From the IMG/VR virus record IMGVR_UViG_3300013137_000008: DNA of 64,000 nt; one strand, 5' to 3'. A program made the position numbers and the translations under genes. Below are positions 28,137 to 63,867 of this stretch, in pieces. The stretch is from a virus. Taxonomy: Duplodnaviria > Heunggongvirae > Uroviricota > Caudoviricetes. Below the pieces are notes generated by a model. The model had not been told where the DNA came from, did not search any database, and saw only the letters and a program-made list of their open reading frames with translations. Each line of letters begins with the position of its first letter. Position 1 is the stretch's first letter.

Positions 28137-28163
28137 ATTAGCACCTCCATATTTTAAGGTATA

Positions 28164-28367: not shown

Positions 28368-28379
28368 GTTTTAGTCCTC

Positions 28380-30328: not shown

Positions 30329-30506
30329 TAGGGCGTAGTCAGTCTTTAAAGGATTAGCTCCTTGCTTGAAAAAGTGAGGGGCTTTTTTCTTTTCAACTGC
30401 GGTTGAAAAGCATATCTTTTCCCTAATTGCGATTAAAAAGCATAGGTTAGCGACAAAAGACTTAAAAAACGTTGACTTATGTAGGTATAGTATGTATATT
30501 GGAAAT

Positions 30507-30656
30507 ATGGGTAAGTACTGTCCATTTTGCAGGTGTAAGCGTCCTCTTACCAAAGCAGGGGTGGCATATGGGGCGCATGGGCAGGCTGTGCAGAGGTGGA
30601 AGTGTACTAATAAAATGTGTAGCAAATTTACTATTAAGCCCTTAAGTGTGAAATGA
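30507..30656 (+). CDS. IS1595/InsA-like zinc-ribbon small protein (49 aa), candidate regulator
   Basis: MGKYCPFCRCKRPLTKAGVAYGAHGQAVQRWKCTNKMCSKFTIKPL. Stop overlaps the ATG of the giant gene. Below the ORF-track size cutoff. Confidence 0.5.
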   Translation: MGKYCPFCRCKRPLTKAGVAYGAHGQAVQRWKCTNKMCSKFTIKPLSVK

Positions 30657-42320: not shown

Positions 42321-42749
42321 ATGAGTAAAGAGATGTATGTAACAGATAAAAAGGGCAATCGGTATGAAATCAAGTCCCATATTGACTATGGGGCGATTAT
42401 TATGACGTCTGTTTTACCTGAGTTAAAACCCATAGATAGTTTGTGTATTGCAAGAGATGGACTAATCTTCGGGAAATGGCGAGACCCTGATTATCGAAAC
42501 TCCGCTGCTATAGATGATTGTAGGATGTTGAAGTGGGAAGAATTTTTAAGGCAGGGGTGGTTACTGCCCGAAGTAGATAAGATTTACGGTTTTGTCCACC
42601 CGAATAATGTCGCTTCGATTAAATGGGTATTGTCAAGGGGTGGGTATCTAGATGGAAAACATGAGATAGATGGAGTAATATACGATAAGTATGTTGTACC
42701 TATAGATGCCATGGTTAAGATGGCTGAGAAAATTAAATGTATGGTTTGA
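42321..42749 (+). CDS. Hypothetical protein
   Basis: 142-aa ORF, coupled to the giant gene. Confidence 0.45.
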   Translation: MSKEMYVTDKKGNRYEIKSHIDYGAIIMTSVLPELKPIDSLCIARDGLIFGKWRDPDYRNSAAIDDCRMLKWEEFLRQGWLLPEVDKIYGFVHPNNVASIKWVLSRGGYLDGKHEIDGVIYDKYVVPIDAMVKMAEKIKCMV

Positions 42750-48700: not shown

Positions 48701-51700
48701 TGGTTAATGGATGGCAAACCAATAGATACAACTTTTGAAACTAACGCTATAAAAACCATTTCAGATTTTGCGCCTAGGGAAAAATTTGCGGGTGGAGTAA
48801 AAGGGATAGACGAGTGGTATCAAAAAGTTAGACCTGATTGGTATGATTATACTGGAAGTTTTAATCCTGATTATGCAATAGGAGTAGTAAAGGGATCGGT
48901 TTGGGTTGTTAGCGAATTATGGCAAATGGTTAGTGGTATGTTAGGGGTGTTACCGTTAACTATCTTAAAGGTTGGGAGAGAAGCTACTGCTGGTGATATT
49001 AATCATGCGGCAGAAACCATTGTAACAAGTGGTGGTGGGATGGTATTAATGCCAGGGGCATGGTTAGGTGAAAAAGTATCTGATATAGGAAGAGGTAATA
49101 TACCCAAATTTGTTGGGGAATCAGTAGGGATGGGGCTTAGTTTAGTATTTGCACCAGAAGCTTTGGCAAAAGGGTTAAATAGAGGGTTTAATGTATCTCA
49201 ATTAGCTATCAAAGCGGCAAAAGGTGATATTATTTCTGCTCGTGCAATAGCCAATTATCCAGAAGTAGTAGCAATTAGAACACCTCAATCATTTAGAGTA
49301 TTGGAAACTGAACTGTCGGCTATCTTTTCTGATAAAGTCAAGGTAGATAAGATATTGGAGAAATCTAATCCGATTGAACAGCGAAAAGAGATACGTGCAT
49401 TACTTAATCCAGAAACTGCAAAAGTATTTGATGCAATCGTTGAATTGGTAGATTTAGTAGGTGGATATACAGTTAACCCATCAAGTATTCGCAAAGTTAA
49501 CTTCGATGATATATTAAGAGTACCAATTGGAGCAGACAAAGCAATTAAATCAGTGCTGGATAATTATAAGGGAAAATTTGAAATACATGGTAGCTTTGCT
49601 GATTGGGTACAGATGAAAAATGTTCCTGATGCCTATAGACCAAAGGATTTGGACGCATTCTTTAATGATGATGTTTCTATTAATACGGTTGCAAAGAAAA
49701 TTTCAGATGATATAAATAAGGAACTAGGTAAGAATATAACAAGAGCAGAGGGAGCACAAATTAAAACGCTTAAAGATGGTAATTGGGATAAAATGCTTGA
49801 TATTCATCATAAGAGCGAATTTAGTTCTGTTGCTCCGCTAGGTTTTGAGCAAATAAGGAATAATGTTGTTGTTGATGGAATAGAATTTGAACCACTTGGC
49901 AATCAGTTATGGCATCGCGGTTGGGAATTAATGAACCCAGGAGTTGGTACACAACGTGGTTTAATGGGGCCAGTTGCCGCAGCTAAGGAATGGAGATTAA
50001 AAGATCAATATAGGTTTGAAGTATTGGTTAGGAGTATTATTAATGATTTGAAAACCAATGGAGAGGTTGAATTGGCTAATCAAGTATCAACTAATCTTAA
50101 TACATTCTTAACCTCACCACGGGGAGAAGCATTTAAATGGTCTCCTACAGAGATGGCTGACATATCTAGTGATTTCTTGGAACTCTTTAAGGAATTACAA
50201 GAAGCTTCAATATTGAGCGGTAAAAAGATGGTAGCTTTTGATGAGAAAGGCATACTTGTCAGAGAACCAACTCCGTCAGAGCAGGTAATTCCTGGTACGC
50301 TTTATCATGTTACCTTTGATATACGTCCTTATTTAGAGGCGCAGAAGAGGGGTAAACCAGTTACTATTGGTCAGATAATGGATGAAACTGGTAAATTAAC
50401 AAAGGCAGAAGGCCAGTTTTTATTTACATCACCACAGGCAGCATTTGATTTTATACAAAGATTAGGTGAAGTTGGCGAGAATGCTGGAGTGATTGCGATA
50501 CGTACTACTCTAAATGAGGTTGGATTGGGAAGAGATATAACTCCTGCGTTTAGGATAGAGCAATTTACTGAACCTAAAGAGTTTTCAATTGAAATAGGTG
50601 GTAAAAAGTTTGTCCCAGGTGGTGATGTCATTGTTGGGCGTACTTTAAATGAGTGGTTAGTCCAACCTGGAACCAAGATATATATGACTGGAGAGAAAAT
50701 TGGGACATACCACCCAAGAAGTCTAAAGGGGTATGATATTCATTGGGCACAGACCGCAGGGGCGAGGGATTTGGGGTTAAAGATGCCGAATAATGCCCAG
50801 ATTCATGCCATGAATTTAATGGCAATGAAAGAAACATTCAGGGATTTATTGAATCCTACTTTAGTCAAACAGATAAAAGTTATTAGTGGGCCAACTCCTG
50901 CTATTGGCGAAGGTAGTATTATTAGTTTTAGAAGGGAGCCAATATATTTTAAATCTGTCAATGAGCTAAGTGGCGATTTAAAATTAGTAAGTGACTTATT
51001 GAAAAAGAATAAGACATATAATAAGGCTACTGAAGAGATAGTACGTAGGGTTTGTGAGGAATATGGGTTTGATTATCATGAAGGTTTGGGTACAGAAAAG
51101 TTTGGAACAGGGTTACAAGGGATGTTTTCGCCATTGGAAGGCAAGATTACTTTAACGGATCAATTTATGCAAGACCCAAGGAGCCTAATAACAATTATCC
51201 ACGAATTAACACATAACAAAATGGATAAGTTAATTGATAGTAATCCTAGATATAGGAAAGGAATGGATAATTTACTCAAGGATGTCAGTGTGTATATTAA
51301 GAGTCGTTATGGTGTATCAGTACCGTTAGAAGTAGTAGATACATTTGTACACGAAATAGCCACTATTAATCATGTTAAGAGATTAAGTGGGTTCAATGAT
51401 ATAGATTATCATCTATATAATATTAAGGTTTTGGATGATGTTATCAATAAAATGACTAATGGAACAAGAGTTTTAAGCCCAGATGATATGTTAGCCTTGG
51501 TCAATATGGCAGAAAGTTACGAGAGAACATTACCTATCAAACATGGCATAAATTATGAATATCTACATAAGGCAATGGTAAATGATGCGAAAAATAAGAG
51601 ATCACAGGTGTTATCTCAAGCAGAGGTTAATGAAACCATAGCAATTGGTAAAGAAATGAGGGGTGAATATAGTTCACCGTTGAGCCTTATTCCATCTTTA

Positions 51701-52675
51701 ATAAAAGAGAGAATAAGTAGTACTGAATCTAAATTAAGGAATGATACTGATAGTATTGCTATTAAGCTTTCTAAAGAGGTTGAAAATAGTAAAACACAAA
51801 TAGAAGCAGATAATAAATTAAACCAGATAGTTGATGATGAGTTGGTTAAGTTTAAGAGAGAGATTGGAGAAGAGAACTTTGATAATATTGCAAAGAGTAG
51901 GGATTTTGAAAGGACTTATTACGTAAATCTTGATAAGGTATTTAAAAGTTCAATTAAACCACGTACGATAACTGTTAGTGAGACTCCATCCAAATCTAGT
52001 ATTATCCCTAGTGTGACTTCAGTTCCAGTAAGTGAGGTTGTTACTACAAAGATGGTTGGTAGTGAGCCAATCATTGAAACTATGCCTATTAGCGAAACTA
52101 TTGCTGAGAAAACAATTACAGAAGGAATAACTACTCCCATTACTACGTCAAAGACAGTTCCAGTAACTACAGGAACAATTACACCTACAATTCCAATAAC
52201 TACGCCTATTACGCCAATAATAACCACTACAACTAAAATTACGACTATTCCTATAACTACACCTGTTGCTATCCCAGTTATAACTACAAAAACAGCTCCA
52301 TCTCAAATAATAAAATTACAAAAAGTAAGGCAGATACTTAAAAAGGGTGATAAAGAAGGTTTGATAGCTTGGAAACAAGGTTGGAATTATCGTGTACTTT
52401 TTGCTCCGTGGTCACAAAATGATGTTTTGAATACTCGTAAACCAGTTGAAGGTGTGGAATATCATGAGGGAGTAAGGTCAGCCTATGATTCCATAGTTCG
52501 TAGGGGTGGGTATATCCCACCAGTAATTACTCGTGATATGGGCATCTACACGATTCAGATCAGGACACCAAAAGACCAGCGTAAACCAGAACTTGTGTTT
52601 AGGCGAGATGTGAAGGATGTTTACAAGGGTAAGAAGAAGCCTGTAGCCAAAATGCCACGTATCATACGGTTCTAA
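42737..52675 (+). CDS. Giant (3312 aa) multidomain protein with HExxH zincin-like metallopeptidase motif, Gly-rich and Thr/Pro/Ile-rich low-complexity tracts; polyvalent-protein-like
   Basis: Uninterrupted 9.9-kb ORF; no signal peptide; IIHELTHNKMD motif; SGAGGGGGGAVGSSG tract; C-terminal PITTPITPIITTTTKITTIPITTP tract; basic tail. Confidence 0.8.
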   Translation: MYGLNDEPLYFRGRRYCIGKLCFTGAVGASGPDLMLYTPPSIYSTPSSTPSAPAAPAEPVSSPVPTPPSDSLDSTFRRTQQVSGGASGDVYRESSESVARIGAGMGKGDVGQSKQLLSKEEEARQIQRLENLPHTWAEMVSQDPYVLLRPDAEARLAVLPESERPKITYPVNDSELALLKQQAAKYGTSEDEKIVQTVMNIMQSDWSPSATMPSDLLNLPKTYGELAVIKLGILNNSPNNTWTLSTGQKVTLPKSEYVNQAILDNTTYTYRQMGESEIPRSKTEPSTGVFSPNPNAFGLWTPLSDEARYDSRIVDALDKSKYQSALNIVDKLSEPWGARPSGAGGGGGGAVGSSGTMGSGGITIPGVTVNVAPTTGVVTVSSQGQERVTGVADTGTAFLTTQSMKEAAKQAGYGLLSAEDVKNVYDKAEQLQKWQAELPTAKNKVEIQRNIDEAQSYLSKVVKANTPLTPTLLVDAVESSIRNKSNPAQELANDGLTRAAEQAGGREIKDGVWETRTSTAKYMDALQEFLKGVQGIEREAPFKQKVFSDAQQVAQDNDEANAVDKGNRPTDPVKIMESWRYTKEAAQLRDSKGNNLTGEALSRVIEGWGKQRTAEGGSPITYVQYVPVGQTIENGVVKLVYDWRSVDENNKPYEYGVIQRPIWWDMSTGKILVTSKDWRPDRKLQNWQTFDEFAEAVARGEIATPNRILDAKAKKLESILKSAEWNKYLNDWNGFLKNPVKGDEPITDIPVSDLNIADFGYRYGAYYVDDKGIVDYKGIVKASERYEDSLNIDQPLDWVYILSGSSYKPEPVPVTEAQPERYVSTGTTETKFEPSEKIETKPSGVVSVDIAPKVFETSALTQESDGRIYKAKIVITVTKDKITETRYDDKGNIDIGGSYESPLAADTNSIPFQSLVRTIGLDSANKVVSDMQQAATTPSVITQEVRATTIPMLVGEGQGRKVVEQRGDKVRAIVFDANGIILFDNTYSADSDQGKFNIGFAKEQARLGLAKVNITSVQVTAPTKTERVETENVEPSSWFAGGLPKVLALPYLEGEISGDSSINIHDVGMDIVNGKTIISWKTDKPTLGIVQGCYDGGCGNWRDTELSTDHKIEVDISEYSPEQLATLHLTAITSTTGDGLKDTSIQWMPINKNVTLSAETVISSIPDMSMGSVKSVITTKEEPKFKGRELTSDENTAKGILWIKVDDNGIATAMDINRTVIYTVYPDGRMEGHDLHGGNRVCTNTECSIKHAKAIEDIKSAVKSAGMDINNYKPSVVVAAIPTISKVEGVKPTEFVITPTAIKAGITPKDIVNNMVTQAYVTDNKDWRTKVLDIVNKYTDKGILNIEKAYQEITRAKLPIAAPIIQPKIVSTPDETRRYFYWGVTLKPTMDETLFEVAKREMTTDYNEAKRRQSLAEYEPSDEAGKKLKATLAPQDQFTDYDRKVIENWESPKLFKSSTQWIGQDPMNYYGLAIEMGKQQVIVNKAKQVDALRKAGKLDEIPPMPTPYTSLATRLEPIISTTKSEYEKSLAIINANKLDSSKPVPTERDYTIVSTVEKYRGDDKLRTPNFYSVYEALKGGPWAIGVEGEVGGGLKLRVGQVTSERPEVPISEYYIPQPIVETSRQPMSNYLDVLFGRTTPQGWAGRYEMRAKPEISMRASELIKLGPFEGQVHLVKPKIPELSLEEKWIGMIPVLTMDSVKTWLPSETNKEAYTKQKAYFESQGYVLPLGSIFGGYDNQGKATFVSKVDFAKLSPDNKNVLLTEGISGLNAKMSVDSWNGGIVWGVIQEKYGSNPFKWAQDLRDTGVKPDEIRGLLATVNWKEPDTIDNVMKTIPKENEVTDSEWAKMWFNILAPGDQFVPNRVEFIEYATKHPEDPRANVLFKGVPSVLPLTYEAASDIDQKAPWSDQVMQIKLAEVKSLYKYGEKVQEGIGAEGNRVIQSVLAPGAWAMAGANGGFWDSEFRVGAEKNISPITFYVDPNTGEKKAEWLMDGKPIDTTFETNAIKTISDFAPREKFAGGVKGIDEWYQKVRPDWYDYTGSFNPDYAIGVVKGSVWVVSELWQMVSGMLGVLPLTILKVGREATAGDINHAAETIVTSGGGMVLMPGAWLGEKVSDIGRGNIPKFVGESVGMGLSLVFAPEALAKGLNRGFNVSQLAIKAAKGDIISARAIANYPEVVAIRTPQSFRVLETELSAIFSDKVKVDKILEKSNPIEQRKEIRALLNPETAKVFDAIVELVDLVGGYTVNPSSIRKVNFDDILRVPIGADKAIKSVLDNYKGKFEIHGSFADWVQMKNVPDAYRPKDLDAFFNDDVSINTVAKKISDDINKELGKNITRAEGAQIKTLKDGNWDKMLDIHHKSEFSSVAPLGFEQIRNNVVVDGIEFEPLGNQLWHRGWELMNPGVGTQRGLMGPVAAAKEWRLKDQYRFEVLVRSIINDLKTNGEVELANQVSTNLNTFLTSPRGEAFKWSPTEMADISSDFLELFKELQEASILSGKKMVAFDEKGILVREPTPSEQVIPGTLYHVTFDIRPYLEAQKRGKPVTIGQIMDETGKLTKAEGQFLFTSPQAAFDFIQRLGEVGENAGVIAIRTTLNEVGLGRDITPAFRIEQFTEPKEFSIEIGGKKFVPGGDVIVGRTLNEWLVQPGTKIYMTGEKIGTYHPRSLKGYDIHWAQTAGARDLGLKMPNNAQIHAMNLMAMKETFRDLLNPTLVKQIKVISGPTPAIGEGSIISFRREPIYFKSVNELSGDLKLVSDLLKKNKTYNKATEEIVRRVCEEYGFDYHEGLGTEKFGTGLQGMFSPLEGKITLTDQFMQDPRSLITIIHELTHNKMDKLIDSNPRYRKGMDNLLKDVSVYIKSRYGVSVPLEVVDTFVHEIATINHVKRLSGFNDIDYHLYNIKVLDDVINKMTNGTRVLSPDDMLALVNMAESYERTLPIKHGINYEYLHKAMVNDAKNKRSQVLSQAEVNETIAIGKEMRGEYSSPLSLIPSLIKERISSTESKLRNDTDSIAIKLSKEVENSKTQIEADNKLNQIVDDELVKFKREIGEENFDNIAKSRDFERTYYVNLDKVFKSSIKPRTITVSETPSKSSIIPSVTSVPVSEVVTTKMVGSEPIIETMPISETIAEKTITEGITTPITTSKTVPVTTGTITPTIPITTPITPIITTTTKITTIPITTPVAIPVITTKTAPSQIIKLQKVRQILKKGDKEGLIAWKQGWNYRVLFAPWSQNDVLNTRKPVEGVEYHEGVRSAYDSIVRRGGYIPPVITRDMGIYTIQIRTPKDQRKPELVFRRDVKDVYKGKKKPVAKMPRIIRF

Positions 52676-53754: not shown

Positions 53755-54255
53755 TTATGGTATTCCCATAGATTGTAGCCATAGCTTCTCAGCTTCTATA
53801 TCATCACAATGTTTAAGTAGTTCTTTAGTTTGATATGGAGTGAATGTATATTCTATGGCGTCAGTTTTGTCACTGGTGGTATGAGTACTATTAAGTTGAT
53901 CTCTGCGTTTCCATGTTGATGTGTCCCTATTGATGTGATAACGATTTGCTCTATTTGGTTGCCTGTCTATTTTAAGTATATTGAGTGCCTCTAGTTCATT
54001 CATTGCTTTAATATCCCCTCTCCGAGTAACCTCAAGAAATTTACTGCGTATGGCATGCCCTACCAAATCACCATCTTTGATGTTACCGTTTTTAATGAAG
54101 CCAAATTCCTGATCTATTTGATATATGAGAATCCGTAATGCAAGGTGTGTAGTATTCGCTTTACAGGCAGCCCTTGTTAATCGTTGTGCTATTTCGTAGT
54201 TTGTTTCTTGACTTTTATTATGTCGTGTGGTATTATCAGCATTGGATAGAACCAT
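53755..54255 (-). CDS. Hypothetical protein
   Basis: 166-aa ORF diverging from the ubiquitin-like operon. Confidence 0.45.
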   Translation of the reverse strand: MVLSNADNTTRHNKSQETNYEIAQRLTRAACKANTTHLALRILIYQIDQEFGFIKNGNIKDGDLVGHAIRSKFLEVTRRGDIKAMNELEALNILKIDRQPNRANRYHINRDTSTWKRRDQLNSTHTTSDKTDAIEYTFTPYQTKELLKHCDDIEAEKLWLQSMGIP

Positions 54256-54469
54256 TCATATTATTCCCCGAAATGGAAGCCTCACCGTCAGAAAGTTGGG
54301 CTTCCGTTTCATTATTTACAAGTATTTGTTCTGGGGTAAATGTAGCCCGATGGCAATCACGACAATAATAGCTTTGTCGCATTGAACCGCTATACCTCAT
54401 GCCGTATTTATTGAGCCTCTTTGATTTACACCTAGGGCATATCAACTTGATTTCCATATTGCACTCCAT
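54236..54469 (-). CDS. IS1595/InsA-like zinc-ribbon small protein, candidate regulator
   Basis: CPRCKSKRLNKYGMRYSGSMRQSYYCRDCHRATFTPE. Confidence 0.5.
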   Translation of the reverse strand: MECNMEIKLICPRCKSKRLNKYGMRYSGSMRQSYYCRDCHRATFTPEQILVNNETEAQLSDGEASISGNNMNGSIQC

Positions 54470-54704: not shown

Positions 54705-54827
54705 CACATAATATAACATGATTAAGGTAGTCAAGTAGGCTTGACTACTCAGTAGTTTTATGGGCAGTAGTTCTATGGGTGATACTACTGTTTGAGGTGC
54801 AGAAATTTGCGCCTAAAGTTTCTATAG

Positions 54828-54942
54828 TTGCACAAGCATATATAATATGGTATAATAGAGTAGCAAATGGCAATAGCGGTCAAAATAGCACAGCAATGGA
54901 TGACGCAGGTGGTTGACATAGGCTAATACAGTATGCTATAAT
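54828..54942 (+). promoter_or_regulatory. Tandem sigma70-type promoters: TTGCAC-N17-TATAAT and TTGACA-N18-TATAAT
   Basis: ttgcac aagcatatataatatgg tataat (54828..54856); ttgaca taggctaatacagtatgc tataat (54913..54942); ATG at 54972 with GGAGGA SD. Confidence 0.6.
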
Positions 54943-54971: not shown

Positions 54972-55220
54972 ATGGATAGCAAAGAAGTTAAAGTAGTGGG
55001 AATCAATGACATGGTTACGGTCAAAATCGGAAACAAGGATTACTTTGTTAATTCGGGCAACTTTGTTTCTGAGGTGCAAAAGGCAGCGCATTCAGCAGGT
55101 CTAAGCCAGTACAAGGTCTATGTTAATGGCAATGTAATAGGTGAGCGTGAAGCGCATTCTATGACAGTAAAACCCTCAGATAAGGTTATGGTGCAGCCAT
55201 TTGATGAGGCTGGTAGTTAA
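54972..55220 (+). CDS. Ubiquitin-like beta-grasp protein (ThiS/MoaD-like)
   Basis: 82 aa. Alternating hydrophobic strands VKVVGI..VTVKIG. C-terminal block VYVNGNVIGE...VKPSDKVMVQPFDEAGS resembles ThiS/MoaD ...VNG..V......L..GD.V.i....GG. Ends AGS, not GG. Confidence 0.55.
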   Translation: MDSKEVKVVGINDMVTVKIGNKDYFVNSGNFVSEVQKAAHSAGLSQYKVYVNGNVIGEREAHSMTVKPSDKVMVQPFDEAGS

Positions 55221-55222
55221 CA

Positions 55223-56164
55223 ATGGAAGACACGGTGTGGGGGCGGAGTTTTAAAGAGATAGCCCCTGTTCTGCCTGTTGCAAGGGAACCTGAGCCTTGG
55301 GGAAGGAACTTACCTCAAAAGGTAGGGGGTAAAATGGGTATACCTCAGTGGGTTGGTTGGGGTGGACTTGGGATTGGTACGTGTCTTGCTCTTGGTGGAA
55401 CATTTATACCTATACTTGGGGTTGTCCCTATGGTAGTAGGTGGGATACTTGTCTTTGGTGGTGGAATAGTATTAGGTATAGGTGATAAATTAAGAGGTCA
55501 TTTGGGAAATGATGTTGTTATAGATGAGCAAGAAACCCCACAGGTGGAATCTACTTTTTGGATTGCCAATTCCGTAGTATCTTTACAGAGAGACTTTCGT
55601 AAACTAAAGGCACTTAATGAACTTAATCGAACGGTTGAATTGGTCAATGCCTATAACTTAACAGCGCAGGAGATATCTCGTATTAAGGAATCTAATGTGT
55701 CTAGTTTTGGCGTTACAACACAGATAGAGCCGCTCGCTACCGATGTATTCAGACAAGGATTACTATTCCTTTGTAGTGTGAGGGATTTCCTTAGTCTAAT
55801 TAAGGCAGAGGATGAGGGAAAATTACAGGGTATTGTCATGTCCCTTAATGATGAAATAGAAGAACTGTCTAAAAGTGGGTCGGCATTAGCTGCTCAAACA
55901 CTTGAACTTAAGTTTAGTTCACTTAGATATACGCAAGATCGTATCTTGAATTTGTCAACTAATAGAGAGTATGTTGCCCTATTAGTTGCTCGTGTAGAAG
56001 AATGTGAGAATATATTGAGGGTGACGTTTGATAACCTCACAAAGCTCAATATTGAGGATTCAGCAAGTTCAGTGGATGAAATACGGCATAGGTTACAGAA
56101 TTGTATCAATTTTGCCATTGAAGTAAGAAAGGAGATAAATAAAGCATGTCTCGAAGTATCGTAA
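55223..56164 (+). CDS. Membrane protein with Gly-zipper TM helices and a long coiled-coil domain
   Basis: GIPQWVGWGGLGIGTCLALGG...VVGGILVFGGGIVLGIG, then heptad-rich sequence. Confidence 0.5.
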   Translation: MEDTVWGRSFKEIAPVLPVAREPEPWGRNLPQKVGGKMGIPQWVGWGGLGIGTCLALGGTFIPILGVVPMVVGGILVFGGGIVLGIGDKLRGHLGNDVVIDEQETPQVESTFWIANSVVSLQRDFRKLKALNELNRTVELVNAYNLTAQEISRIKESNVSSFGVTTQIEPLATDVFRQGLLFLCSVRDFLSLIKAEDEGKLQGIVMSLNDEIEELSKSGSALAAQTLELKFSSLRYTQDRILNLSTNREYVALLVARVEECENILRVTFDNLTKLNIEDSASSVDEIRHRLQNCINFAIEVRKEINKACLEVS

Positions 56165-56475
56165 AGGTTATGGAAACCAGTGAGTTGCCTAAAGATTTTG
56201 AGGAGTCTTTCTATGCTAAGGTAGCAGAGCATAGGTTTTGTCCTAAATGTGGTAAAGAACGTAGTTTTGTTATTACAGGTAAAGAGGCAAATGGGTTTAA
56301 TACTAAGACTGGCAAGGTTATGTATTCGTATATAGGAATGGGGCATTGTAACGGGCACCAATGCTTACCTTGTAAACTTGAATTATGCAGAACGAATGAT
56401 GGCTCATATGAGTGGCACAATCAATACGAGTCACAATGGTATCCACCATTTAAAGATAAGACAGCGTGGTATTAA
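56146..56475 (+). CDS. Multi-Cys/His zinc-finger protein (possible binuclear treble-clef, RING-like)
   Basis: FCPKCGK...GMGHCNGHQCLPCKLELC...WH. Confidence 0.45.
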   Translation: MSRSIVKVMETSELPKDFEESFYAKVAEHRFCPKCGKERSFVITGKEANGFNTKTGKVMYSYIGMGHCNGHQCLPCKLELCRTNDGSYEWHNQYESQWYPPFKDKTAWY

Positions 56476-56494
56476 GAGATAGGAGAGTAGAATT

Positions 56495-57679
56495 ATGGGA
56501 ATAAACATTTTAGATCAATCAAAAGCACTTAGTATAGATGTTCAAAAGCCTAAAGTACCTGAGAAGTTATCGGATAAGGAAAAAGAACAGATAGAGTCTA
56601 TGGCTGACCAAGTGGTAAAGAAGTTGGAGTCATCCGATGGTTCGCAGATAATCGAGTATATTGAGCAGGTTGGTAATGTGGGATTTAAGGCGCAGCAGTC
56701 AGCCTCAACAAAACTTGACCTTTTTCAAAGTAGGATGGGACAGGTTTTTAACCACAAAGAATCGCTGTCTAGTCAAATAACAGACGATGTGGTGTCGCTC
56801 AAAAAGGCAATGCGTAGCATCAATCCGTCTGATATTAAGAAGGAATGGTTGGTATCATTTCTTGAGGCGTTGCCATTTGGGAATAAATTGGTTAATGTCT
56901 TACAGAGGATAGACGTTCGTAGAGAAAGCGTTGAGAAGGTTATCTCTACTATTGAGGCAAGTCTTACCAATGGGCGTAATATGATAGTAAAAGATAATGC
57001 TGAGTTGGGCGTACTCCATAAAGACCTTGAAGGGACTCAGACAGTTGTGCAGAAGAATGCGTATTTAGCTGAGGTGATGGCTGAAAAACTTGATGAACTG
57101 ATTGCCAACACAGTTGATACGCAGAAGCAAGGTCAATATAAGAACGTTTTGTTCAGAGTTGTTACTCGTGGGCAGGATTTACGTGCCATGGAAGCGGCCT
57201 ATGAGCAGTTCTTCGTATCTATCAAACTGACTAAGGAAAACAACTCGCTTCTAATAGATACGTCTCAGCGAATGCTTACTTTAGCGATGCCTGTCTTGTC
57301 AGTTGCCTTTGCTATTCATGTTGCTCTTGCAGAGCAGGGTAAAGTCCTTGATGCGGTTAAGGCTACCCGTGACTTTATCGGCGGTATGCTGATACAGAAT
57401 GCTACTGCTATCCGTGACAACATCAAGGAAACCGCCGAACTTTACAAAGAACCTATCATTGCTATCCAATCTATCGAAAAGGCACAGCAGATGCTTGTAC
57501 AGGCTATTGATGAAGTTGATAGGTTAAAGACAGTTGGAATTCAGACAGCTAGAGAGAACATCATGAAACTTAAGTATATATCTGAGGAGATGAGGCAAAA
57601 GGCTGAGGGTAATGCAGGAACGATTATGTCCCTTGAAGCTAACGATTATAAAGTTTTACCGAGTGGAGAAGAAAAATGA
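56495..57679 (+). CDS. TelA/KlaA-family protein (toxic anion resistance protein-like)
   Basis: 394-aa all-helical. LSDKEKEQIESMADQVV ... IKKEWLVSFLEALPFGNKLVNVLQRIDVRRESVEKVISTIEASLTNGRNMIVKDNAEL parallels the TelA/YaaN conserved core. Confidence 0.65.
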   Translation: MGINILDQSKALSIDVQKPKVPEKLSDKEKEQIESMADQVVKKLESSDGSQIIEYIEQVGNVGFKAQQSASTKLDLFQSRMGQVFNHKESLSSQITDDVVSLKKAMRSINPSDIKKEWLVSFLEALPFGNKLVNVLQRIDVRRESVEKVISTIEASLTNGRNMIVKDNAELGVLHKDLEGTQTVVQKNAYLAEVMAEKLDELIANTVDTQKQGQYKNVLFRVVTRGQDLRAMEAAYEQFFVSIKLTKENNSLLIDTSQRMLTLAMPVLSVAFAIHVALAEQGKVLDAVKATRDFIGGMLIQNATAIRDNIKETAELYKEPIIAIQSIEKAQQMLVQAIDEVDRLKTVGIQTARENIMKLKYISEEMRQKAEGNAGTIMSLEANDYKVLPSGEEK

Positions 57680-57978
57680 CAGAAAAGAATGAGTTTGACG
57701 CACTAAAGCAGTTATTCAATGACCCTCGAATTGGGGCAAAGTTTTTAAACATAGTGGCAGATGTTAAGGATTTGGGTAGTGCTATTTCTGAGAAGTTGAA
57801 GAGCAAAGAGTGCCAGGATGAGATAAACAAGGTCAAATCTACGTTAGGATTGGATAGTTGTCATGGGTGTGATGGGAAAGGATGGATAACTATAGGCAAA
57901 GATGAGGCTTTGAGACCCACAATGTGTCCGATTTGCAATGGAACGGGGAAGAAGCAGGATGAGCAAAAAACGGTATAA
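57676..57978 (+). CDS. Small protein with DnaJ-type CxxCxGxG zinc finger
   Basis: CHGCDGKGW...CPICNGTGKK. Confidence 0.45.
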   Translation: MTEKNEFDALKQLFNDPRIGAKFLNIVADVKDLGSAISEKLKSKECQDEINKVKSTLGLDSCHGCDGKGWITIGKDEALRPTMCPICNGTGKKQDEQKTV

Positions 57979-58717
57979 CGGGAACCTTTCTGCTGATAAG
58001 TTCATAAAGGAATTAGAGAAAGTCCCTGCTAAGGCAGCAGAAATCACCAAGGAGCTTCCAGTCATTGTAAGCATAGATGGCAAGTCGTATAAACTTTTGC
58101 CATGTGAAGAAGTGGATTATAAAGAAGTTATATTTGAATACGTGGAGACTTATCTAAAAGAAACTGTCAGTGCAATGAAGGGACAGGTTAAGGAATTTGC
58201 CTCTCGTTTGCAAGATAAAATTGATGAAATCAGTCTATCTCAAACAAAACAGTATCCTCCGCCACCCACTCTTGAGTTTGTAATGAACAACGATATGCAG
58301 ATAGCGGTTAAAGGCGGTTTATACTACTATATCCTGCCTTTTAACTATACTCCACAGTTATTGAGTGGTAGGAAGATTACAGGTGCAGACAAGTTATCTA
58401 GAGAGGTATTGATATTTTTTGGCTATGATACTAACAAAAAAGGAGAGTTTATATTAGAGAGTGTTGAACTGCGTAATTATAATATGAGTGCTTTTAATCA
58501 CTATCATGATTTAAATACGGTAGGAAAGGATTGTTGGGGCAACATAAGTCTACCCATAGGTTCTGCTTATGATGTGGCAAAGTTGCCTGAATTGCGGGAT
58601 AGGTTGCAGAATTCCTTGGAGAATATCAACGGGCGTAGCCTTGCTCATAATAAGCCATCTAAATTACCTGACGTTAAGAACATAAATATAAAACCAGGAA
58701 GTGTTGTATGGAGTTAG
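57959..58717 (+). CDS. Candidate E2-like (UBC-fold) protein
   Basis: NHYHDLNTVGKDCWGNISLP resembles the E2 HPN-x(5-6)-G-x-(I)C-L active-site region; sits directly upstream of E1. Start taken at MSKKRYNG. Confidence 0.4.
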   Translation: MSKKRYNGNLSADKFIKELEKVPAKAAEITKELPVIVSIDGKSYKLLPCEEVDYKEVIFEYVETYLKETVSAMKGQVKEFASRLQDKIDEISLSQTKQYPPPPTLEFVMNNDMQIAVKGGLYYYILPFNYTPQLLSGRKITGADKLSREVLIFFGYDTNKKGEFILESVELRNYNMSAFNHYHDLNTVGKDCWGNISLPIGSAYDVAKLPELRDRLQNSLENINGRSLAHNKPSKLPDVKNINIKPGSVVWS

Positions 58718-59460
58718 ACCGGCAGAATTCTTTAAAACTGAACATCCCCGATAGTGTCTGTGTGGTAGGGTGTGGCGGTATTGGCAATTGGGTTGCGCTT
58801 TATCTTACATTAATGGGGGTACGTTCGCTTTGCTTATTTGATGGCGATAAGGTGGAAATCCATAATCTCAATCGTACTATCTTCTCAAAAGCAGACATAG
58901 GCGAATACAAAACAGATGCGCTTAAGAAGATACTTAATGCTATGCGTAGCGTGAGCATCTTATCATTTACAAGTGAGTGTTCGTCTATTAAATTAGATAG
59001 CCTAATTGAAAAACCTGATGTTTTTATGGATTGTACAGATAGACATGAAGTGCAGTTAACAATGGCAAAATGGTGTGAGAACAATAAGGTGCGATATATT
59101 AGGGTTGGGGCTAATACAAACCATATTACTGTGACTTCTAATGTAAATACATGGGGTGAATCTAAACAAGAACAATGTGGCGTTACTATACCAAGTTGGG
59201 TTGCCCCAGTTGCTCTTGTAGCAGCTTATGCTATAACAAAGCTTGCTTTGAATTCAGGCTTGGAAGTCAGTATGTCATTGGATGATGAAAACACTATTCC
59301 TGATGGAATATCTGTTGGTGAACGAGAAGGGCTAGGGAAACATAATGATATTCCTGTTTATCGTACCCTAGAACCCTTTTCTTCTCCTAATGCCAATATT
59401 CCTAATGATTGGCTTTGCTCTGAATATAGAGAAGAAGTCTATAATCAAATACGGAGATAA
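58708..59460 (+). CDS. E1-like ThiF/MoeB-family adenylyltransferase
   Basis: VCVVGCGGIGNWVALYLTLMGVRSLCLFDGDKVEIHNLNRTIF...GEYKTDALKKIL...VFMDCTDRHEVQL: Rossmann GxGxxG, D-x-D and conserved DCTD motifs. Confidence 0.85.
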   Translation: MELDRQNSLKLNIPDSVCVVGCGGIGNWVALYLTLMGVRSLCLFDGDKVEIHNLNRTIFSKADIGEYKTDALKKILNAMRSVSILSFTSECSSIKLDSLIEKPDVFMDCTDRHEVQLTMAKWCENNKVRYIRVGANTNHITVTSNVNTWGESKQEQCGVTIPSWVAPVALVAAYAITKLALNSGLEVSMSLDDENTIPDGISVGEREGLGKHNDIPVYRTLEPFSSPNANIPNDWLCSEYREEVYNQIRR

Positions 59461-59462
59461 AT

Positions 59463-59672
59463 ATGGCTAAGATTTGTCCGATTATGAGCGCAGGATGGTT
59501 AGCAAACAAATGGGGTGCTACGATAGGTGGAGCCAAGAATACGAGTGTGTTAGATAACCTCGTAGAATGTAAAGAGGAAGTTTGTATGGCTTTTGAAGAT
59601 GGTGAATGTGGATTATGCAGTAAGCTAATTTCAACAATGAAATCTAAGGATATGGGAGTAAAAGAGTGTTAG
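59463..59672 (+). CDS. Small Cys-rich protein
   Basis: CP...C.EEVC...GECGLC...C; 69 aa. Confidence 0.4.
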   Translation: MAKICPIMSAGWLANKWGATIGGAKNTSVLDNLVECKEEVCMAFEDGECGLCSKLISTMKSKDMGVKEC

Positions 59673-60361
59673 ACTTAACAAAACCAATAGTAGATTGGAT
59701 GCCTAAGAATAAAACATGGTCAAGTGATGTGCAGGTACATGAAAAGTGTATCTTGAACAATGGCACAGTATATATGGATAGCTTGGTACATGACAAGGTT
59801 CGCATGTTAACAGGACAGATATCAACTGAATGGCTGGGATACCTAATTGGCAAGGTAGATGGGACAAAGGCTTATATAGAGGATATCTTTATCCCTGAGC
59901 AATCTGTGAGTTCGACTCATGTACACGTCAAAGATCAGGTTTTGCCTGAGAACATCATAGGTACAGTCCATTCACATCATACCATGGGTAATTTCCTATC
60001 AGGGACAGATCATAGGCATTTGGTAGGTAATCACGCTGTGACTATAGTTGCCTCACGGACTGGATTGATGTCTAAAATGCGGGTAAAAGCCCCTTGCGAA
60101 GCCTTAATGCTATTAGATGCCGATATTGAGGTTGAAGACTCTGCAATGCTTAAAGAATTTTTTGAACAGAATATAACCAAGATTGAGGGTAGTGGTGTTA
60201 ATCCTAATACTCCTAAATTAAACTGGGCAGGGAAAATTTGGCGGTATCCTGCCACTGTACTTTCCAATTGGCAGTCAAGGTCGGGTAAGAATGGTATTGT
60301 CGTTGTGGTAATTGTGGTTCTTTTGGCGTTGGCCTTGATACTTTATGGTAGAGGATTCTAG
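59666..60361 (+). CDS. JAB/JAMM (MPN) metallopeptidase with C-terminal TM anchor
   Basis: E...HSHHTMGNFLSGTD fits E-x(n)-H-x-H-x7-S-x2-D; C-terminal IVVVVIVVLLALALILYG. Confidence 0.8.
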   Translation: MLDLTKPIVDWMPKNKTWSSDVQVHEKCILNNGTVYMDSLVHDKVRMLTGQISTEWLGYLIGKVDGTKAYIEDIFIPEQSVSSTHVHVKDQVLPENIIGTVHSHHTMGNFLSGTDHRHLVGNHAVTIVASRTGLMSKMRVKAPCEALMLLDADIEVEDSAMLKEFFEQNITKIEGSGVNPNTPKLNWAGKIWRYPATVLSNWQSRSGKNGIVVVVIVVLLALALILYGRGF

Positions 60362-60603
60362 TGAGCGTTAGAGAGCGCAGATTACGTAACTTAGGTAGGG
60401 ATTATCCCAAGCTTGGTAGCTATAGGGGTGATAGTTCCCATTATAAAGGGCGGGTGTTATCAATAGGTTTAGGTAGGACTATTGGGCTAATATTTGTGTT
60501 AGTATCGCTAGCGGCTATTATTATGGCAGCGACAATGATTTCTCCAATGTTTCTTATACTTATGACATTAATAGCGATACCATTTATATTTGGGTATGAT
60601 TAA
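60361..60603 (+). CDS. Small membrane protein
   Basis: C-terminal TM helices. Confidence 0.4.
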   Translation: MSVRERRLRNLGRDYPKLGSYRGDSSHYKGRVLSIGLGRTIGLIFVLVSLAAIIMAATMISPMFLILMTLIAIPFIFGYD

Positions 60604-60605
60604 CA

Positions 60606-61088
60606 ATGACTATAAAAGAACGTAGAATGCGTAATTCATACACTTCTATCAATCAATCTAGTTGGGTACAGCCTCATTGTAAACAAAAGAAGCAACGATC
60701 TAGTCCCGCTAATTCTAGTCCTGATTGGGATGTTTTGTCCTTCTTGACGCCATTTGGCGTAGTTATATTGATAATTTTATTTTGCCAACCATTTTGTAAT
60801 GGAAATGAAGGGCAGGTTGCCCAAGAGGTACAAAAGTTTAATGCTATAGTCCAAAGTGATAATTACACTCAAATGAGATTTATTTGCTCTGGGGTAGCTG
60901 AGGCGGAAGCATTTGGCAAGGTAATAGAGTACAAAGATTCTCGTTATGGCTGGTTTAGAGAAATGGCTGTTAAGAATTTAGACGGGACTATTACTGAGAA
61001 GATAGGGCTTCAGGAAGGTAAAGCTTATCAAGTCTACGAGTATAATGGGCGTTACTTTGCATCTGAGATACCTAGTTCATCGCCGTAA
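60606..61088 (+). CDS. Hypothetical membrane-anchored protein
   Basis: One TM helix; 160 aa. Confidence 0.4.
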   Translation: MTIKERRMRNSYTSINQSSWVQPHCKQKKQRSSPANSSPDWDVLSFLTPFGVVILIILFCQPFCNGNEGQVAQEVQKFNAIVQSDNYTQMRFICSGVAEAEAFGKVIEYKDSRYGWFREMAVKNLDGTITEKIGLQEGKAYQVYEYNGRYFASEIPSSSP

Positions 61089-61141: not shown

Positions 61142-61552
61142 GTGCATAGAATCTTACCGTGGATTTTAGTTATCGCAGTAGTGGCTATTATGATAATATT
61201 GTGGATTGTCAATATGCCACCTAAATCTGATGAAGCTAAGGCAAGTGGTGGGTTTTCATGTGGGTGTGCTGCTCCTGAAGATGATTCGTACATTTCGCTT
61301 GGTAGTGGTGTTATTACTAATATAGAATATGTGAAAAAGGGCGAGAAAACATACATAAAGTTCTTGATAGATGGTACTCCAGTAACACTTGATTTTGACA
61401 AGACAAAGACGGCAGACTATTCAGAAATATATGGTACTACTAATATAGAGGAAGGAATGTACTATTATATATATGAGAAAGGGGGTAGATTAATTTGGTC
61501 AACAACACCTAAGCCCACAAGGGATAGAAGTAAAGTAAATGAAAAGGAGTAA
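61142..61552 (+). CDS. NfeD-like small membrane protein (TM plus beta-rich C-terminal domain), SPFH partner
   Basis: GTG start; N-terminal TM; paralog of 62416..62895 (IDGTPVTLDFDKT...YYYIYEKGGRLIWSTTPKP). Confidence 0.45.
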   Translation: MHRILPWILVIAVVAIMIILWIVNMPPKSDEAKASGGFSCGCAAPEDDSYISLGSGVITNIEYVKKGEKTYIKFLIDGTPVTLDFDKTKTADYSEIYGTTNIEEGMYYYIYEKGGRLIWSTTPKPTRDRSKVNEKE

Positions 61553-62375
61553 AAGAGTGAAGGAATTTGAATGGAACGGTTGGAGCACTGCAGGTGTCAT
61601 ATTGGCGTTTATCTTTGTATTGATTACATTGATTGGTGGTATAGTGACTACGCCTGCTGGTCATACTAATATCGTGCTACAGTTTGGCAAAGTAGTTGGG
61701 ACTAAGGCAGAGGGGTTGTCTTTTAAGATGCCCATAATTGAGAATGTGGTTACTATGAGTTTGCAGACTCAACTATATTCGGAGTCGGCATCTGCGGCAA
61801 GCAAGGATTTACAGGATGTGAACACAAAGGTAGCAATCAACTATCGTGTCGATCCTATATATGTTTCTGAGATTTATCGTACTTTAGGAGTGAACTATAT
61901 AGACAAAATAGCTGCTCCTGCTGTGCAGGAAGTAGTCAAGGAAATCACAGCTCGCTATAATGCTGAAGATATGATACTTAGGCGTGCAGATGTCAAAAAC
62001 GACATCACTAATTCCTTGAGCCAACGTTTACGTGAGCGTGGGATAATCACTGAGACAGTCAATATAACTGACTTCAAGTTTTCTCCAGTGTTCACTCAGG
62101 CTATTGAATCTAAGGTGTCTGCATTACAGGCAGTCTTAGAAGCGCAGAATAAGCTTGAGCGTGTTCGTGTTGAGGCGCAACAGGCTAAAGCGCAAGCTGA
62201 GGGTGAAGCAAATGCGGCAGTGGCAAGGGCAGAAGGTCAGGTCAAAGCCATTGAGATTCTGAAAGCCGCCTTAACCCCTGAGTATCTTCAGTATATCTAC
62301 ATTGATAAATTAGCAAAAGATGCTAAGGTTATTGTAGTTCCACAGGGTATGCCTCTAACTCTTTCGGGTTATTAG
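61539..62375 (+). CDS. SPFH/band-7 (stomatin/prohibitin-like) protein
   Basis: N-terminal TM, SPFH core, Ala/Gln/Glu-rich coiled-coil tail AQQAKAQAEGEANAAVARAEGQ; true start may be the GTG at 61557. Confidence 0.7.
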   Translation: MKRSKRVKEFEWNGWSTAGVILAFIFVLITLIGGIVTTPAGHTNIVLQFGKVVGTKAEGLSFKMPIIENVVTMSLQTQLYSESASAASKDLQDVNTKVAINYRVDPIYVSEIYRTLGVNYIDKIAAPAVQEVVKEITARYNAEDMILRRADVKNDITNSLSQRLRERGIITETVNITDFKFSPVFTQAIESKVSALQAVLEAQNKLERVRVEAQQAKAQAEGEANAAVARAEGQVKAIEILKAALTPEYLQYIYIDKLAKDAKVIVVPQGMPLTLSGY

Positions 62376-62415: not shown

Positions 62416-62895
62416 GTGCTTAAATACATAAATTGGTTCATTGTATGGGTAATTGCATCAGTCATAGTAGTATTTGCCACGGGTGGTATATCTACAGATA
62501 ATGTTACTGTACCACAAATGTCGTGCGAGTCTAAAGATATGCAGAAAGTGGATAAACCTACTGAGAGTGTACAAACTAAGGATAACTTTAGCTGTGGGTT
62601 TAGACTCTCAGGGTTAACCCTTATATCTAAGGGCATTGTGCGTAATATAATGATTGATAAAAACGCAGAACCAAACACAATCTCATTTGAGGTGGATGGT
62701 CAGCCAATGACTTTAGATTATGACAAGACGGTATCTCGTAGTAGAATAGACGTGCAGATATATAATAAGGATGGGAAGAAAGTTATAGAAGAAGGGAAGT
62801 ATTATTATATCTATGATTGGGACAATTTTAGAATAGTATGGTCACAAACACCCAAAATGTTGGATGGAGGTTTATTAGCGGATTTGAAAGAGTGA
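62416..62895 (+). CDS. NfeD-like small membrane protein (paralog of 61142..61552)
   Basis: N-terminal TM; VDGQPMTLDYDKT...YYYIYDWDNFRIVWSQTPK. Confidence 0.45.
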   Translation: MLKYINWFIVWVIASVIVVFATGGISTDNVTVPQMSCESKDMQKVDKPTESVQTKDNFSCGFRLSGLTLISKGIVRNIMIDKNAEPNTISFEVDGQPMTLDYDKTVSRSRIDVQIYNKDGKKVIEEGKYYYIYDWDNFRIVWSQTPKMLDGGLLADLKE

Positions 62896-62949: not shown

Positions 62950-63867
62950 ATGGTAGGTCTTATATTCATCTTGGTAGGTGTAGGTCTATTCCTAATCTTG
63001 GCATTGGCAACTTCTATATTTACAGTCAGACAACAGACGGCAGCGGTTATTGAACGGTTTGGCAAGTATGTGCGGACAGTGGGGCCTGGTATTCATATGA
63101 AGTGGTTTTTTGGTATTGAGTCGATTGTCGCTCGCCCAACTCTCAGAATTAGCCAGTTAGACTTGAAAATGCAGTCAAAGACTAAGGATGATGTGACTGT
63201 GACTTTGCAACTGGCAATCCAGTACGTGATACCAACTATGGATAAGATTTGTGATGCGTACTACAAGCTTATCAACCATGAACAGCAGATTGAATCATGG
63301 GTATTTGATGTAGTTCGTTCTAAAGTCCCTAACTTGACTATGAACGAGGTTTATGAGAACAAAGACGAAATCGCTAAGGACGTAGAGGACAGGCTTAAGG
63401 AACGGATGCACATCTATGGTTTTGAGATCGTGAGGGCGTTGGTGAACGATGTAATTCCACCTTCTAAGGTTATGGAAGCGATGAATGAAGTTAATACTCA
63501 GCAAAGGTTACAGGTTGCTGCTTCAGCAGAGGGTGAGAAGAACAAAATTCTTACCATCAAAGCCGCAGAAGCACAGAAGGAGAATAAGATTCTCCAAGGT
63601 CAGGGTATAGCAGGAGAACGGAAAGCTATCATGGAAGGTCTTAAGGAAGCGGTTGAGGACTTCAAGAAAGGCGTACCTGGGGCTACTTCCAATATGGCTA
63701 TGAACCTTTTGGTTCTCACTCAATACTTTGACACTCTCCAGACTTTTGGCAAGAGCACAAACGGCAAAGTTGTCTTGCTACCGTCTAACCCTGGAGCTGT
63801 AGGTGATTGGCAAAACCAGATACTATCAATGCTTGTGGCTGGTAGTGAAACTAAGACAAAGGAGTAG
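62950..63867 (+). CDS. SPFH/band-7 protein (second copy)
   Basis: N-terminal TM; QTAAVIERFGKYVRTVGPGIHMK...; AAGGAG SD. Confidence 0.75.
   Translation: MVGLIFILVGVGLFLILALATSIFTVRQQTAAVIERFGKYVRTVGPGIHMKWFFGIESIVARPTLRISQLDLKMQSKTKDDVTVTLQLAIQYVIPTMDKICDAYYKLINHEQQIESWVFDVVRSKVPNLTMNEVYENKDEIAKDVEDRLKERMHIYGFEIVRALVNDVIPPSKVMEAMNEVNTQQRLQVAASAEGEKNKILTIKAAEAQKENKILQGQGIAGERKAIMEGLKEAVEDFKKGVPGATSNMAMNLLVLTQYFDTLQTFGKSTNGKVVLLPSNPGAVGDWQNQILSMLVAGSETKTKE

Follow-up and report, generated by a model that had tools for sequence, protein, structure and literature searches.

A TelA-linked variant of E3-less ubiquitin-like cassettes carrying three small cysteine-rich protein families

Here we describe an operon in a 64,000-nucleotide (nt) stretch of viral DNA (Caudoviricetes; IMG/VR record IMGVR_UViG_3300013137_000008); the whole stretch is called the window below. 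The operon is a new and rare, TelA-linked variant of the E3-less prokaryotic cassettes for ubiquitin-like proteins (Ubl). Its genes are, in order, a putative Ubl, the putative membrane protein TMCC, ORF1, TelA, ORF2, an "E2-like" protein, an E1, ORF3, a JAB peptidase, small hydrophobic proteins, and two Band_7/SPFH genes. Three of these open reading frames (ORFs), namely ORF1, ORF2 and ORF3 (the trio), encode small Cys-rich proteins. All three are real, conserved genes, and to judge from their residue patterns each represents a new orphan family of a known kind, ORF1 a zinc ribbon, ORF2 a DnaJ-type finger and ORF3 a Cys4 mini-protein. Our explanation for the trio, which we put forward tentatively, is that these proteins are non-catalytic accessory subunits with one metal site each, acquired together with TelA and TMCC by a rare cassette variant borne on mobile elements. 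Loci with L-numbers are regions of other DNA recovered by our searches.

The three small ORFs are conserved genes of the operon

As the initial annotation of this DNA had proposed, three small Cys-rich proteins are encoded inside the operon; their ORFs lie on the + strand and are tightly packed with the neighbouring genes (Table 1). In the + strand gene run from 54972 to 61088, neighbouring genes overlap or stand 2-52 nt apart. Independent gene callers predicted all three ORFs. Cys makes up 5.5% of ORF1, 5.0% of ORF2 and 8.7% of ORF3; the figure for 44 other likely genes in the window is 1.35%, which makes a 4-6-fold enrichment over the window background (binomial P = 0.004, 0.012 and 0.0003, respectively).

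With the E2-like protein as anchor we recovered the syntenic operons L002 (of which L005 is a copy), L003 and L004, all metagenomic. Positional homologues of ORF1, ORF2 and ORF3 were present in every one of them, wherever the contig permits. The gene order and the overlaps of starts and stops were repeated across these loci, for instance the ATGA shared by TelA and ORF2 and the 10 nt shared by the E2-like and E1 genes. The trio are conserved, translationally coupled members of the TelA-containing operon variant, and purifying selection has maintained them in all three of the other syntenic operons. The ratio of nonsynonymous to synonymous substitution rates (dN/dS) was below 1 wherever dS could be estimated, dS being saturated for most pairs: 0.08-0.12 for ORF2, 0.14-0.50 for ORF1 and 0.14-0.90 for ORF3, with 0.06-0.17 for E1.

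The three families evolve at different rates. Identity to the window copy was 62-63% for ORF2, close to that of E1 (59-65%) and TelA (63-66%) and within the 50-66% seen for the enzymes and TelA overall; it was 24-31% for ORF1 and 26-52% for ORF3. No other genes of the operon evolve as fast as the latter two, and only these two vary in copy number. ORF1 has 1, 3 and 2 tandem copies in the three scorable loci, and ORF3 has 1, 2, 2 and 1, the double copies being those of L002 and L003. In each of the three families, the conserved ligand columns number only four or five.

The core cassette occurs without the trio in distant viral contigs

A JAB-anchored search yielded 77 viral loci, on whose six-frame ORFs we ran hidden Markov models (HMMs) of the operon families. 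The E1 model matched in 73 of these loci, the E2-like model in 11 and the Ubl model in 6 (10 have the ...[YF][DE]VAG end), and none of the 77 gave a match to the HMMs of TelA, TMCC, ORF1, ORF2 or ORF3. The order in the 11 E2-like-bearing loci is Ubl, E2-like, E1, JAB. The gaps measure 62-167 nt between Ubl and E2-like, at most 109 nt between E2-like and E1 (9/11) and at most 69 nt between E1 and JAB (10/11), and most of these cassettes have no room for a homologue of the trio. The wider gaps are occupied by a homing endonuclease, by two ORFs that are not Cys-rich, or by a 76-amino acid (aa) hydrophobic ORF.

Because the core exists without the trio in 11 viral contigs, we regard the operon of the window as a derivative of a phage-type four-gene cassette. 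The absence of the trio from these distant cassettes also means that none of the three is an obligatory component of the cascade, or its obligatory E3. In the TelA-type variant, the Ubl and E2-like genes are separated by the TMCC/ORF1/TelA/ORF2 block, and E1 and JAB by ORF3. From this comparison of gene content the trio appear to be lineage-specific accessories, of which ORF1 and ORF2 would have come with the block of membrane protein and TelA. The initial annotation had named a lack of conservation in homologous operons as an outcome that would speak against its reading; the trio is missing from the distant operons and kept in the close ones.

The compact cassette was found in at least 11 IMG/VR contigs (within L041-L060; e.g., L043, 3949-11663), with a VAG-ending Ubl, an HYH..DCWG E2-like protein, a 195-aa E1 and a JAB. 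We found no description of such a compact Ubl/E2-like/E1/JAB phage cassette in the literature searched. In L043 it follows clamp-loader genes (gp44-like, with Phage_clamp_A matches) and a 245-aa possible sliding clamp, and genes for an HD protein and a NAD-dependent ligase come after it; ORFs like those upstream in L043 were seen in several other viral loci. In L049, a GIY-YIG-like homing endonuclease lies between E1 and JAB (6742-7671, - strand, and 7489-7668), beside a duplicated 3' end of E1. About 55 more distant viral loci (L061-L117) have the reverse order, JAB then E1, and gave no E2-like or Ubl HMM match.

ORF1 has the features of a zinc ribbon

The window copy of ORF1 has six Cys and four His and contains ...FCPKCG... 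and ...GHCNGHQCLPCKLELC... The initial annotation had counted about eight Cys/His ligands and compared them with a binuclear treble-clef or RING-like fold. Indeed, the pattern C-x2-C-x32-C-x2-H-x-C-x2-C-x4-C fills seven of the eight RING ligand positions at near-RING spacing. That count applies to the window copy only. The residues invariant in the six family members are H29, C32, C35, G36, R39, T53, T55, G56, K57, Y62, C68 and P75, and all six have a His 2-6 residues past C68, so that the ligands kept by the family are C32, C35, C68 and the nearby His. C73, C76 and C81, to which the window copy owes its likeness to a RING, are missing from all the other members.

The AlphaFold2 model of ORF1 (predicted local distance difference test, pLDDT, 68; core 76-81) has a helix (16-28) and four strands (38-51, 58-68, 76-82 and 88-93). 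FCPKCG (31-36) comes just before strand 38-51 and C68/H71 just after strand 58-68, and the two knuckles lie at one end of a long hairpin. In the model this geometry is that of a zinc ribbon, with predicted zinc binding, and a weak match to Zn_ribbon_NUD (E = 0.014) was obtained for 2/6 members. A simple ribbon of this sort was among the outcomes that the initial annotation had listed against a RING-like E3, and for ORF1 it is what we obtained. By structural match no RING fold was recovered, and the model is not RING-like. Among the RING models of Pfam the best was PF24921 (E = 0.34; 11.5 bits, cutoff 50), in 1/6 members and located at the cluster of Cys that the family does not conserve; ORF2 and ORF3 matched no RING or U-box model.

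An exhaustive phmmer search of 1.84 billion representative proteins returned relatives of ORF1 only in these operons, plus a spurious repeat protein (P0007), and a k-mer search returned only ORF1 itself. Kinship to ribosomal protein eL42 (E = 3.2), to PSV ORF131 or to phrog_1305 was considered, and none of these was significant. The C-terminal tails of the family are hypervariable and aromatic-rich, and the copies in L002 and L003 have Lys-rich N-termini. The stop of TMCC overlaps the start of ORF1 in all loci.

The ORF1 copies of L003 are near-identical up to about residue 85 and divergent beyond. In the same locus, just 5' of the second copy, a 77-aa ORF (6666-6899) repeats the last ~47 residues of the 337-aa membrane protein, suggesting that a tandem duplication or gene conversion took place recently.

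ORF2 has one predicted DnaJ-type zinc centre

The two DnaJ-type CxxCxGxG knuckles attributed to ORF2 by the initial annotation were confirmed in the window (C62-H-G-C65-D-G-K-G and C84-P-I-C87-N-G-T-G). In 4/4 homologues the four Cys and the second motif are all kept; in L002 the first motif reads CPVCVGNK. The family has 46 invariant columns: residues 1-58 are almost invariant, and the knuckles lie within 62-93. The N-terminal domain is probably helical, given its weak GerD-like matches.

Matches of ORF2 to DnaJ zinc centres were found in four libraries, always below threshold and always consistent: PF00684 (18.1 bits; cutoff 32.7), TIGR02349 (18.4 bits; cutoff 377) and anti-TRAP (14-17 bits; cutoffs 32-65), the DnaJ models being built to expect four motifs or a full-length DnaJ. 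Also below threshold, ORF2 was aligned to motifs 2 and 3 of E. coli DnaJ (PDB 1exk). By its motif count, ORF2 is predicted to have one DnaJ-type zinc centre, not two. It resembles zinc centre II of DnaJ in having two CxxCxGxG motifs with a hairpin of ~18 residues between them, and anti-TRAP (RtpA) in being a small stand-alone protein with a single centre. Unlike DnaJ, it has no J domain, has one centre instead of two, contains a unique conserved N-terminal domain of ~58 residues and occurs in a Ubl/TelA context. ORF2 overlaps the TelA stop (ATGA) in all loci, and overlaps the start of the E2-like gene in the window and L004.

High-GC viral contigs (L007-L038) encode small proteins with a hydrophobic leader that ends in Cys, read as a lipoprotein signal, and with CxNCDGxGK-x9-CPxCKGTGKK at their end. 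In L008 such an ORF2-like gene (~5930-6189) directly follows the gene of a 303-aa protein that may be a lysis enzyme. These viral proteins lie near a putative lysis region without Ubl genes, and as a clue to function we found them uninformative.

ORF3 is a Cys4 mini-protein between E1 and JAB

The initial annotation had given ORF3 five Cys; the window copy has six (5, 36, 41, 49, 52 and 69), of which four are invariant in the family. The invariant residues are K3, C5, P6, C36, C41, M42, A43, G47, C49 and D63, so that the invariant Cys are spaced C-x30-C-x4-C-x7-C and form no CxxC knuckle. ORF3 had no match in family, PDB or other libraries. It starts 2 nt past the stop of E1 and overlaps the start of JAB.

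Cys-rich segments were also seen at the E1 and JAB genes of other loci. In L058 (6943-7974), the E1 has a fused C-terminal tail of ~110 aa with ten CxxC motifs; in L046 (7710-8795), the JAB has an N-terminal CxxC-x22-CxxC ribbon; and many viral JABs have a C-x3-C motif ahead of the JAB domain.

Neighbouring genes and genomic setting

The features of the operon are listed in Table 1. A terminator-like hairpin (54726-54749) lies just 5' of the operon promoter.

Table 1. Promoter and genes of the TelA-linked operon in the window.
Feature	Position	Strand	Basis or remarks
Operon promoter	54913..54942	+	TTGACA-18 nt-TATAAT, extended -10 TG; 12/12 sigma-70 consensus; 30 nt 5' of first gene
Putative Ubl, 82 aa, end ...QPFDEAG-S	54972..55220	+	Position and C-terminus
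TMCC, 313 aa	55223..56164	+	Gly-rich hydrophobic stretch and C-terminal half, read from sequence as membrane-spanning/coiled-coil
ORF1, zinc-ribbon-like, 109 aa	56146..56475	+	Alternative start 56170 gives 101 aa
TelA (toxic anion resistance) homologue, 394 aa	56495..57679	+	PF05816 E = 2e-37; phrog_5890 "tellurite resistance" 5e-15
ORF2, 100 aa	57676..57978	+	Conserved N-terminal domain and one DnaJ/anti-TRAP-type zinc centre (predicted)
"E2-like", 252 aa (259 aa from 57938)	57959..58717	+	Orphan family, invariant HYH...DC(W)G
Minimal ThiF-type E1, 250 aa, core ~190 aa	58708..59460	+	PF00899 7e-30
ORF3, Cys4 mini-protein, 69 aa	59463..59672	+	Invariant Cys set
JAB/JAMM peptidase, 231 aa	59666..60361	+	Prok-JAB 27.2 bits (cutoff 25); C-terminal hydrophobic segment read as membrane anchor
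Two small hydrophobic (putative membrane) proteins	60361-60603, 60606-61088	+	Common N-terminal tag M-[ST]-[IV]-[KR]-E-R-R-[LM]-R-N

The homologues of the putative Ubl are 60-62% identical to it. The three close ones all end in DEAG plus S or C, and viral relatives end in [YF][DE]VAG plus 0-2 residues; a C-terminal AG followed by 0-2 residues is thus kept in 3 close and 10 viral homologues. A beta-grasp fold had no support from Pfam, PDB or hhalign, and the hhalign comparison with approximate ThiS, MoaD and ubiquitin sequences was negative. The identity of this protein as a Ubl, suggested by its size, position and conserved terminal Gly, is unproven. TMCC had no family match and is 53-55% identical in L002 and L003.

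The E2-like family has an invariant HYH-x(5-9)-DC(W)G and a secondary-structure order of helix, four strands, Cys loop and helix. Against canonical E2 sequences, likewise approximate, a first hhalign run was negative, and a deeper alignment gave the expected register, weakly (P = 0.02). No sequence or fold search confirms the label "E2-like", which is unproven. The E2-like family of the TelA-type variant comprises four sequence clusters among 5.8 billion proteins. With this protein as anchor, no relatives were found in GenBank phages, PLSDB plasmids, GTDB genomes or viral contigs; a profile re-search added nothing, and a metagenome scan returned only L005, the copy of L002.

The E1 conserves GxGGIGN, HNLNRT, DCTD and Q-C157-G and has no CxxC zinc motifs; its homologues in L002 and L003 end at 195-198 aa. 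A scan of genomes with E1 returned only L039, an unrelated ThiF locus. In JAB the motif E...H-S-H-x7-S-x2-D is visible, with H-x-H-x7-S-x2-D intact. PADLOC reported no Bil model and matched E1 alone, with generic "E1-E2" models of CBASS (cyclic oligonucleotide-based antiphage signalling systems), and none of the other genes. Assignment to the PRTRC system was rejected, the weak ThiF and PRTRC_A matches scoring far below cutoffs. Scans of viral contigs with TelA, TMCC, ORF1 and ORF3 gave nothing, tblastn with TelA returned only plasmid TelA genes at 22-26% identity, and the DNA of the operon had no match in phages.

Every syntenic locus has one to three small hydrophobic proteins 3' of JAB with the tag M-[ST]-[IV]-[KR]-[ED]-R-R-[LM]-[RH]-[NS] (L002: 12544, 12806 and 13192; L003: 11499 and 12524; L004: 3497). 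Their number (2, 3, 2) loosely tracks that of the ORF1 copies (1, 3, 2). From their synteny, these proteins may be substrates or partners of the system.

Upstream of the operon, a 77-aa zinc-ribbon protein (54236-54469, - strand; InsA/PaaD-like ribbon, E ~3e-4) and a 166-aa protein (53755-54255, - strand) are transcribed divergently from an 11/12 sigma-70 promoter (54516-54488), and may regulate the operon. Further upstream, on the same strand as the operon, are giant ORFs at 42737-52675 (3312 aa), 34439-39133 (1564 aa) and 30653-34114 (1153 aa), two with faint fn3 matches and the largest without any family match. Downstream, two paralogues of ~140-160 aa (61142-61552 and 62416-62895), with the C-terminus ...G.YYYIY....R..WS.TPK..., each precede a Band_7/SPFH gene (61539-62375 and 62950-63867). 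Other zinc proteins of the window are a DnaJ-like protein with a J-domain and CxxCxGxG (23214-23861, - strand) and a protein with three DUF4379 treble-clef repeats (28885-29646, - strand; E = 2e-53). GC skew and coding strand switch at ~28000-30600, with - strand genes before and + strand genes after. The - strand half encodes DnaB, HNH/NUMOD3 endonucleases and a DDE transposase. The element resembles a large phage or plasmid, and its host is probably bacterial, to go by the sigma-70 promoter and a DnaB helicase ~35% identical to Firmicutes phage helicases.

Discussion

Among described systems, the operon parallels BilABCD in its set of four genes for a Ubl (putative here, with a conserved Gly and a short tail), an E2 (here the E2-like protein), a JAB-type peptidase and an E1, in having no dedicated E3, and in a setting of mobile elements and phage conflict (PMC10557695). 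The differences are several. BilABCD has the order Ubl, E2, DUB (deubiquitinase), E1, in contrast to Ubl, E2-like, E1, JAB here; its E1 is a tandem IAD-AAD, whereas ours has a ~190-aa core with a single adenylation domain; and its E2 carries the signature CEHH, where the E2-like protein has HYH...DCWG and no detectable E2 fold. TelA, the membrane protein and the three small predicted zinc proteins are additions relative to BilABCD. Bil systems work without a dedicated E3 (PMC10557695).

Two other systems have small Cys-rich proteins that invite comparison. In the Ub-E1-E2-RING operons of Caldiarchaeum and Asgard archaea, the E3 is srfp, a RING-H2 (C3H2C3) protein whose eight ligands form a cross-brace and which matches RING structures (PMC5654768). 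The likeness lies in a small Cys/His-rich protein within a prokaryotic Ub-like operon and in a JAMM that trims the pro-Ubl. Our families differ from srfp in having four or five ligands each, in an ORF1 model that is not RING-like, and in being dispensable in related cassettes. In Bub operons, BubE is a small C4 protein with an invariant Ser/His dyad; it is a protease, not an E3 (PMC11601596). The trio resembles BubE/DUF6527 in that a small C4 protein in a bacterial Ubl operon could be mistaken for an E3, but neither Ser nor His is invariant in ORF3, and DUF6527 matched no member of the trio.

Under the explanation that we tentatively favour, in which the trio are accessory subunits acquired with TelA and TMCC, each protein would have a part of its own. 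The DnaJ-type zinc hairpin is a protein-binding module in DnaJ and anti-TRAP. Through such a hairpin, ORF2 would probably be a fixed scaffold that joins a sub-membrane TelA module to the conjugation enzymes; that it is as conserved as the enzymes, and that its gene overlaps both TelA and the E2-like gene, suggest such a fixed bridge. ORF1, a ribbon with a hypervariable aromatic tail, would probably be a recognition or specificity subunit at the membrane, a role suggested by the fact that it is coupled to TMCC, evolves fast and is amplified. MoeB/ThiF-type E1 enzymes carry a structural Cys4 zinc site, made of two CxxC pairs of the same chain, directly after the adenylation core. ORF3 lies at this very place relative to the E1 core, where the Cys-rich tail of L058 is fused, and it differs from the MoeB/ThiF site in being a separate polypeptide, in its spacing and in lacking detectable homology. 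It would probably be a structural metal module for the short, zinc-less E1 and/or for JAB; by analogy, the Cys-rich fusions at the E1/JAB junction of relatives suggest a detached metal module. The zinc-finger adaptor that the initial annotation had offered besides the E3 likewise remains plausible from the sequences.

Several observations weigh against the accessory-subunit explanation. Only four independent operons carry the trio, and the arguments from copy number and rate therefore rest on very few data points. Metal binding by all three proteins was deduced from their Cys/His patterns, and ORF1 is the sole one modelled, from a four-sequence alignment and at a pLDDT of 68. Having no CxxC knuckles, ORF3 may bind an Fe-S cluster or form disulfides instead, and the Cys-rich fusions of L058 and L046 are not homologous to it, the analogy being one of position alone. 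Small proteins with the ORF2-type pair CxxCxGxGK...CPxCxGTGKK are encoded on 33 viral contigs, where no gene of a Ubl system lies within 6 kb of them, so the module is not Ubl-specific. Finally, a non-RING, E3-like activity may reside in the trio, as far as its sequences tell.

It is unlikely, though it deserves consideration, that ORF1 and ORF2 serve the TelA/membrane module only, as assembly chaperones or membrane-stress sensors, being passengers of an inserted block with no direct Ubl role. The two genes are found only alongside TelA and the membrane protein, and flank TelA; ORF2-like knuckles occur in phage contigs without Ubl genes; and DnaJ-type fingers are classically chaperone modules. 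However, the block was inserted within the Ubl cassette and not beside it, ORF2 overlaps the start of the E2-like gene in two loci, and our scans with TelA, ORF1 and other genes found no TelA locus that has ORF1 or ORF2 but lacks Ubl genes.

More doubtful is a role of ORF1, and possibly ORF3, as substrates, decoys or non-covalent receptors of the Ubl, their divergence and amplification reflecting an arms race. Zinc-ribbon readers are exemplified by NZF-type fingers, and such a role would suit the rapid evolution and variable copy number peculiar to these two genes, the hypervariable aromatic-rich tails of ORF1 and its Lys-rich N-termini in L002 and L003. Yet there is no similarity to known ubiquitin-binding zinc fingers, and it is rare for a substrate to be encoded in the middle of an operon, in translational coupling with a structural gene.

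Improbable in our judgement is a more elaborate scheme, in which the ORF1 paralogues would be non-RING, E3-like adaptors for specificity, each paired with one tagged membrane protein; the cassette would attach Ubl to these proteins for the TelA/SPFH machinery, and ORF2 would bridge TelA and the E2-like protein. In the three scorable loci the copies of ORF1 and of the tagged proteins stand at 1:2, 3:3 and 2:2. Slightly more improbable still is a role for ORF3 as a redox or Fe-S sensor, or as a peptide modified by the ThiF-like enzyme as in microcins. Its four invariant Cys outside CxxC knuckles fit this idea, as does a short, variable gene duplicated beside a ThiF-family enzyme, but ORF3 has no conserved C-terminal residue suited to adenylation and no match to any Fe-S family or family of ribosomally synthesized and post-translationally modified peptides, and the operon encodes JAB as well as a separate Ubl that has a conserved C-terminal Gly. 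Least credible is that the trio, ORF1 above all, includes a RING-like or binuclear treble-clef E3 that binds the E2-like protein and promotes Ubl transfer: prokaryotic ubiquitin operons with small RING proteins do exist (PMC5654768) and the window copy of ORF1 has a near-RING ligand array with a faint PF24921 match, but no family conserves eight ligands, that match (E = 0.34) is the only one to a RING, and the trio is absent from 11 distant cassettes.

The idea of a bacterial RING-type E3 in this operon can thus be set aside. TelA, which occurs in phages, is thought to form sub-membrane structures (PMC7824862). If the trio, as accessory subunits, tethers the Ubl cascade to the TelA membrane module, this would be a new route to specificity for E3-less bacterial conjugation, and the tether would offer a tractable entry to the still unknown function of TelA. 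Tagging of membrane proteins with the Ubl, if true, would be the counterpart, on a phage or plasmid, of membrane remodelling directed by ubiquitin.

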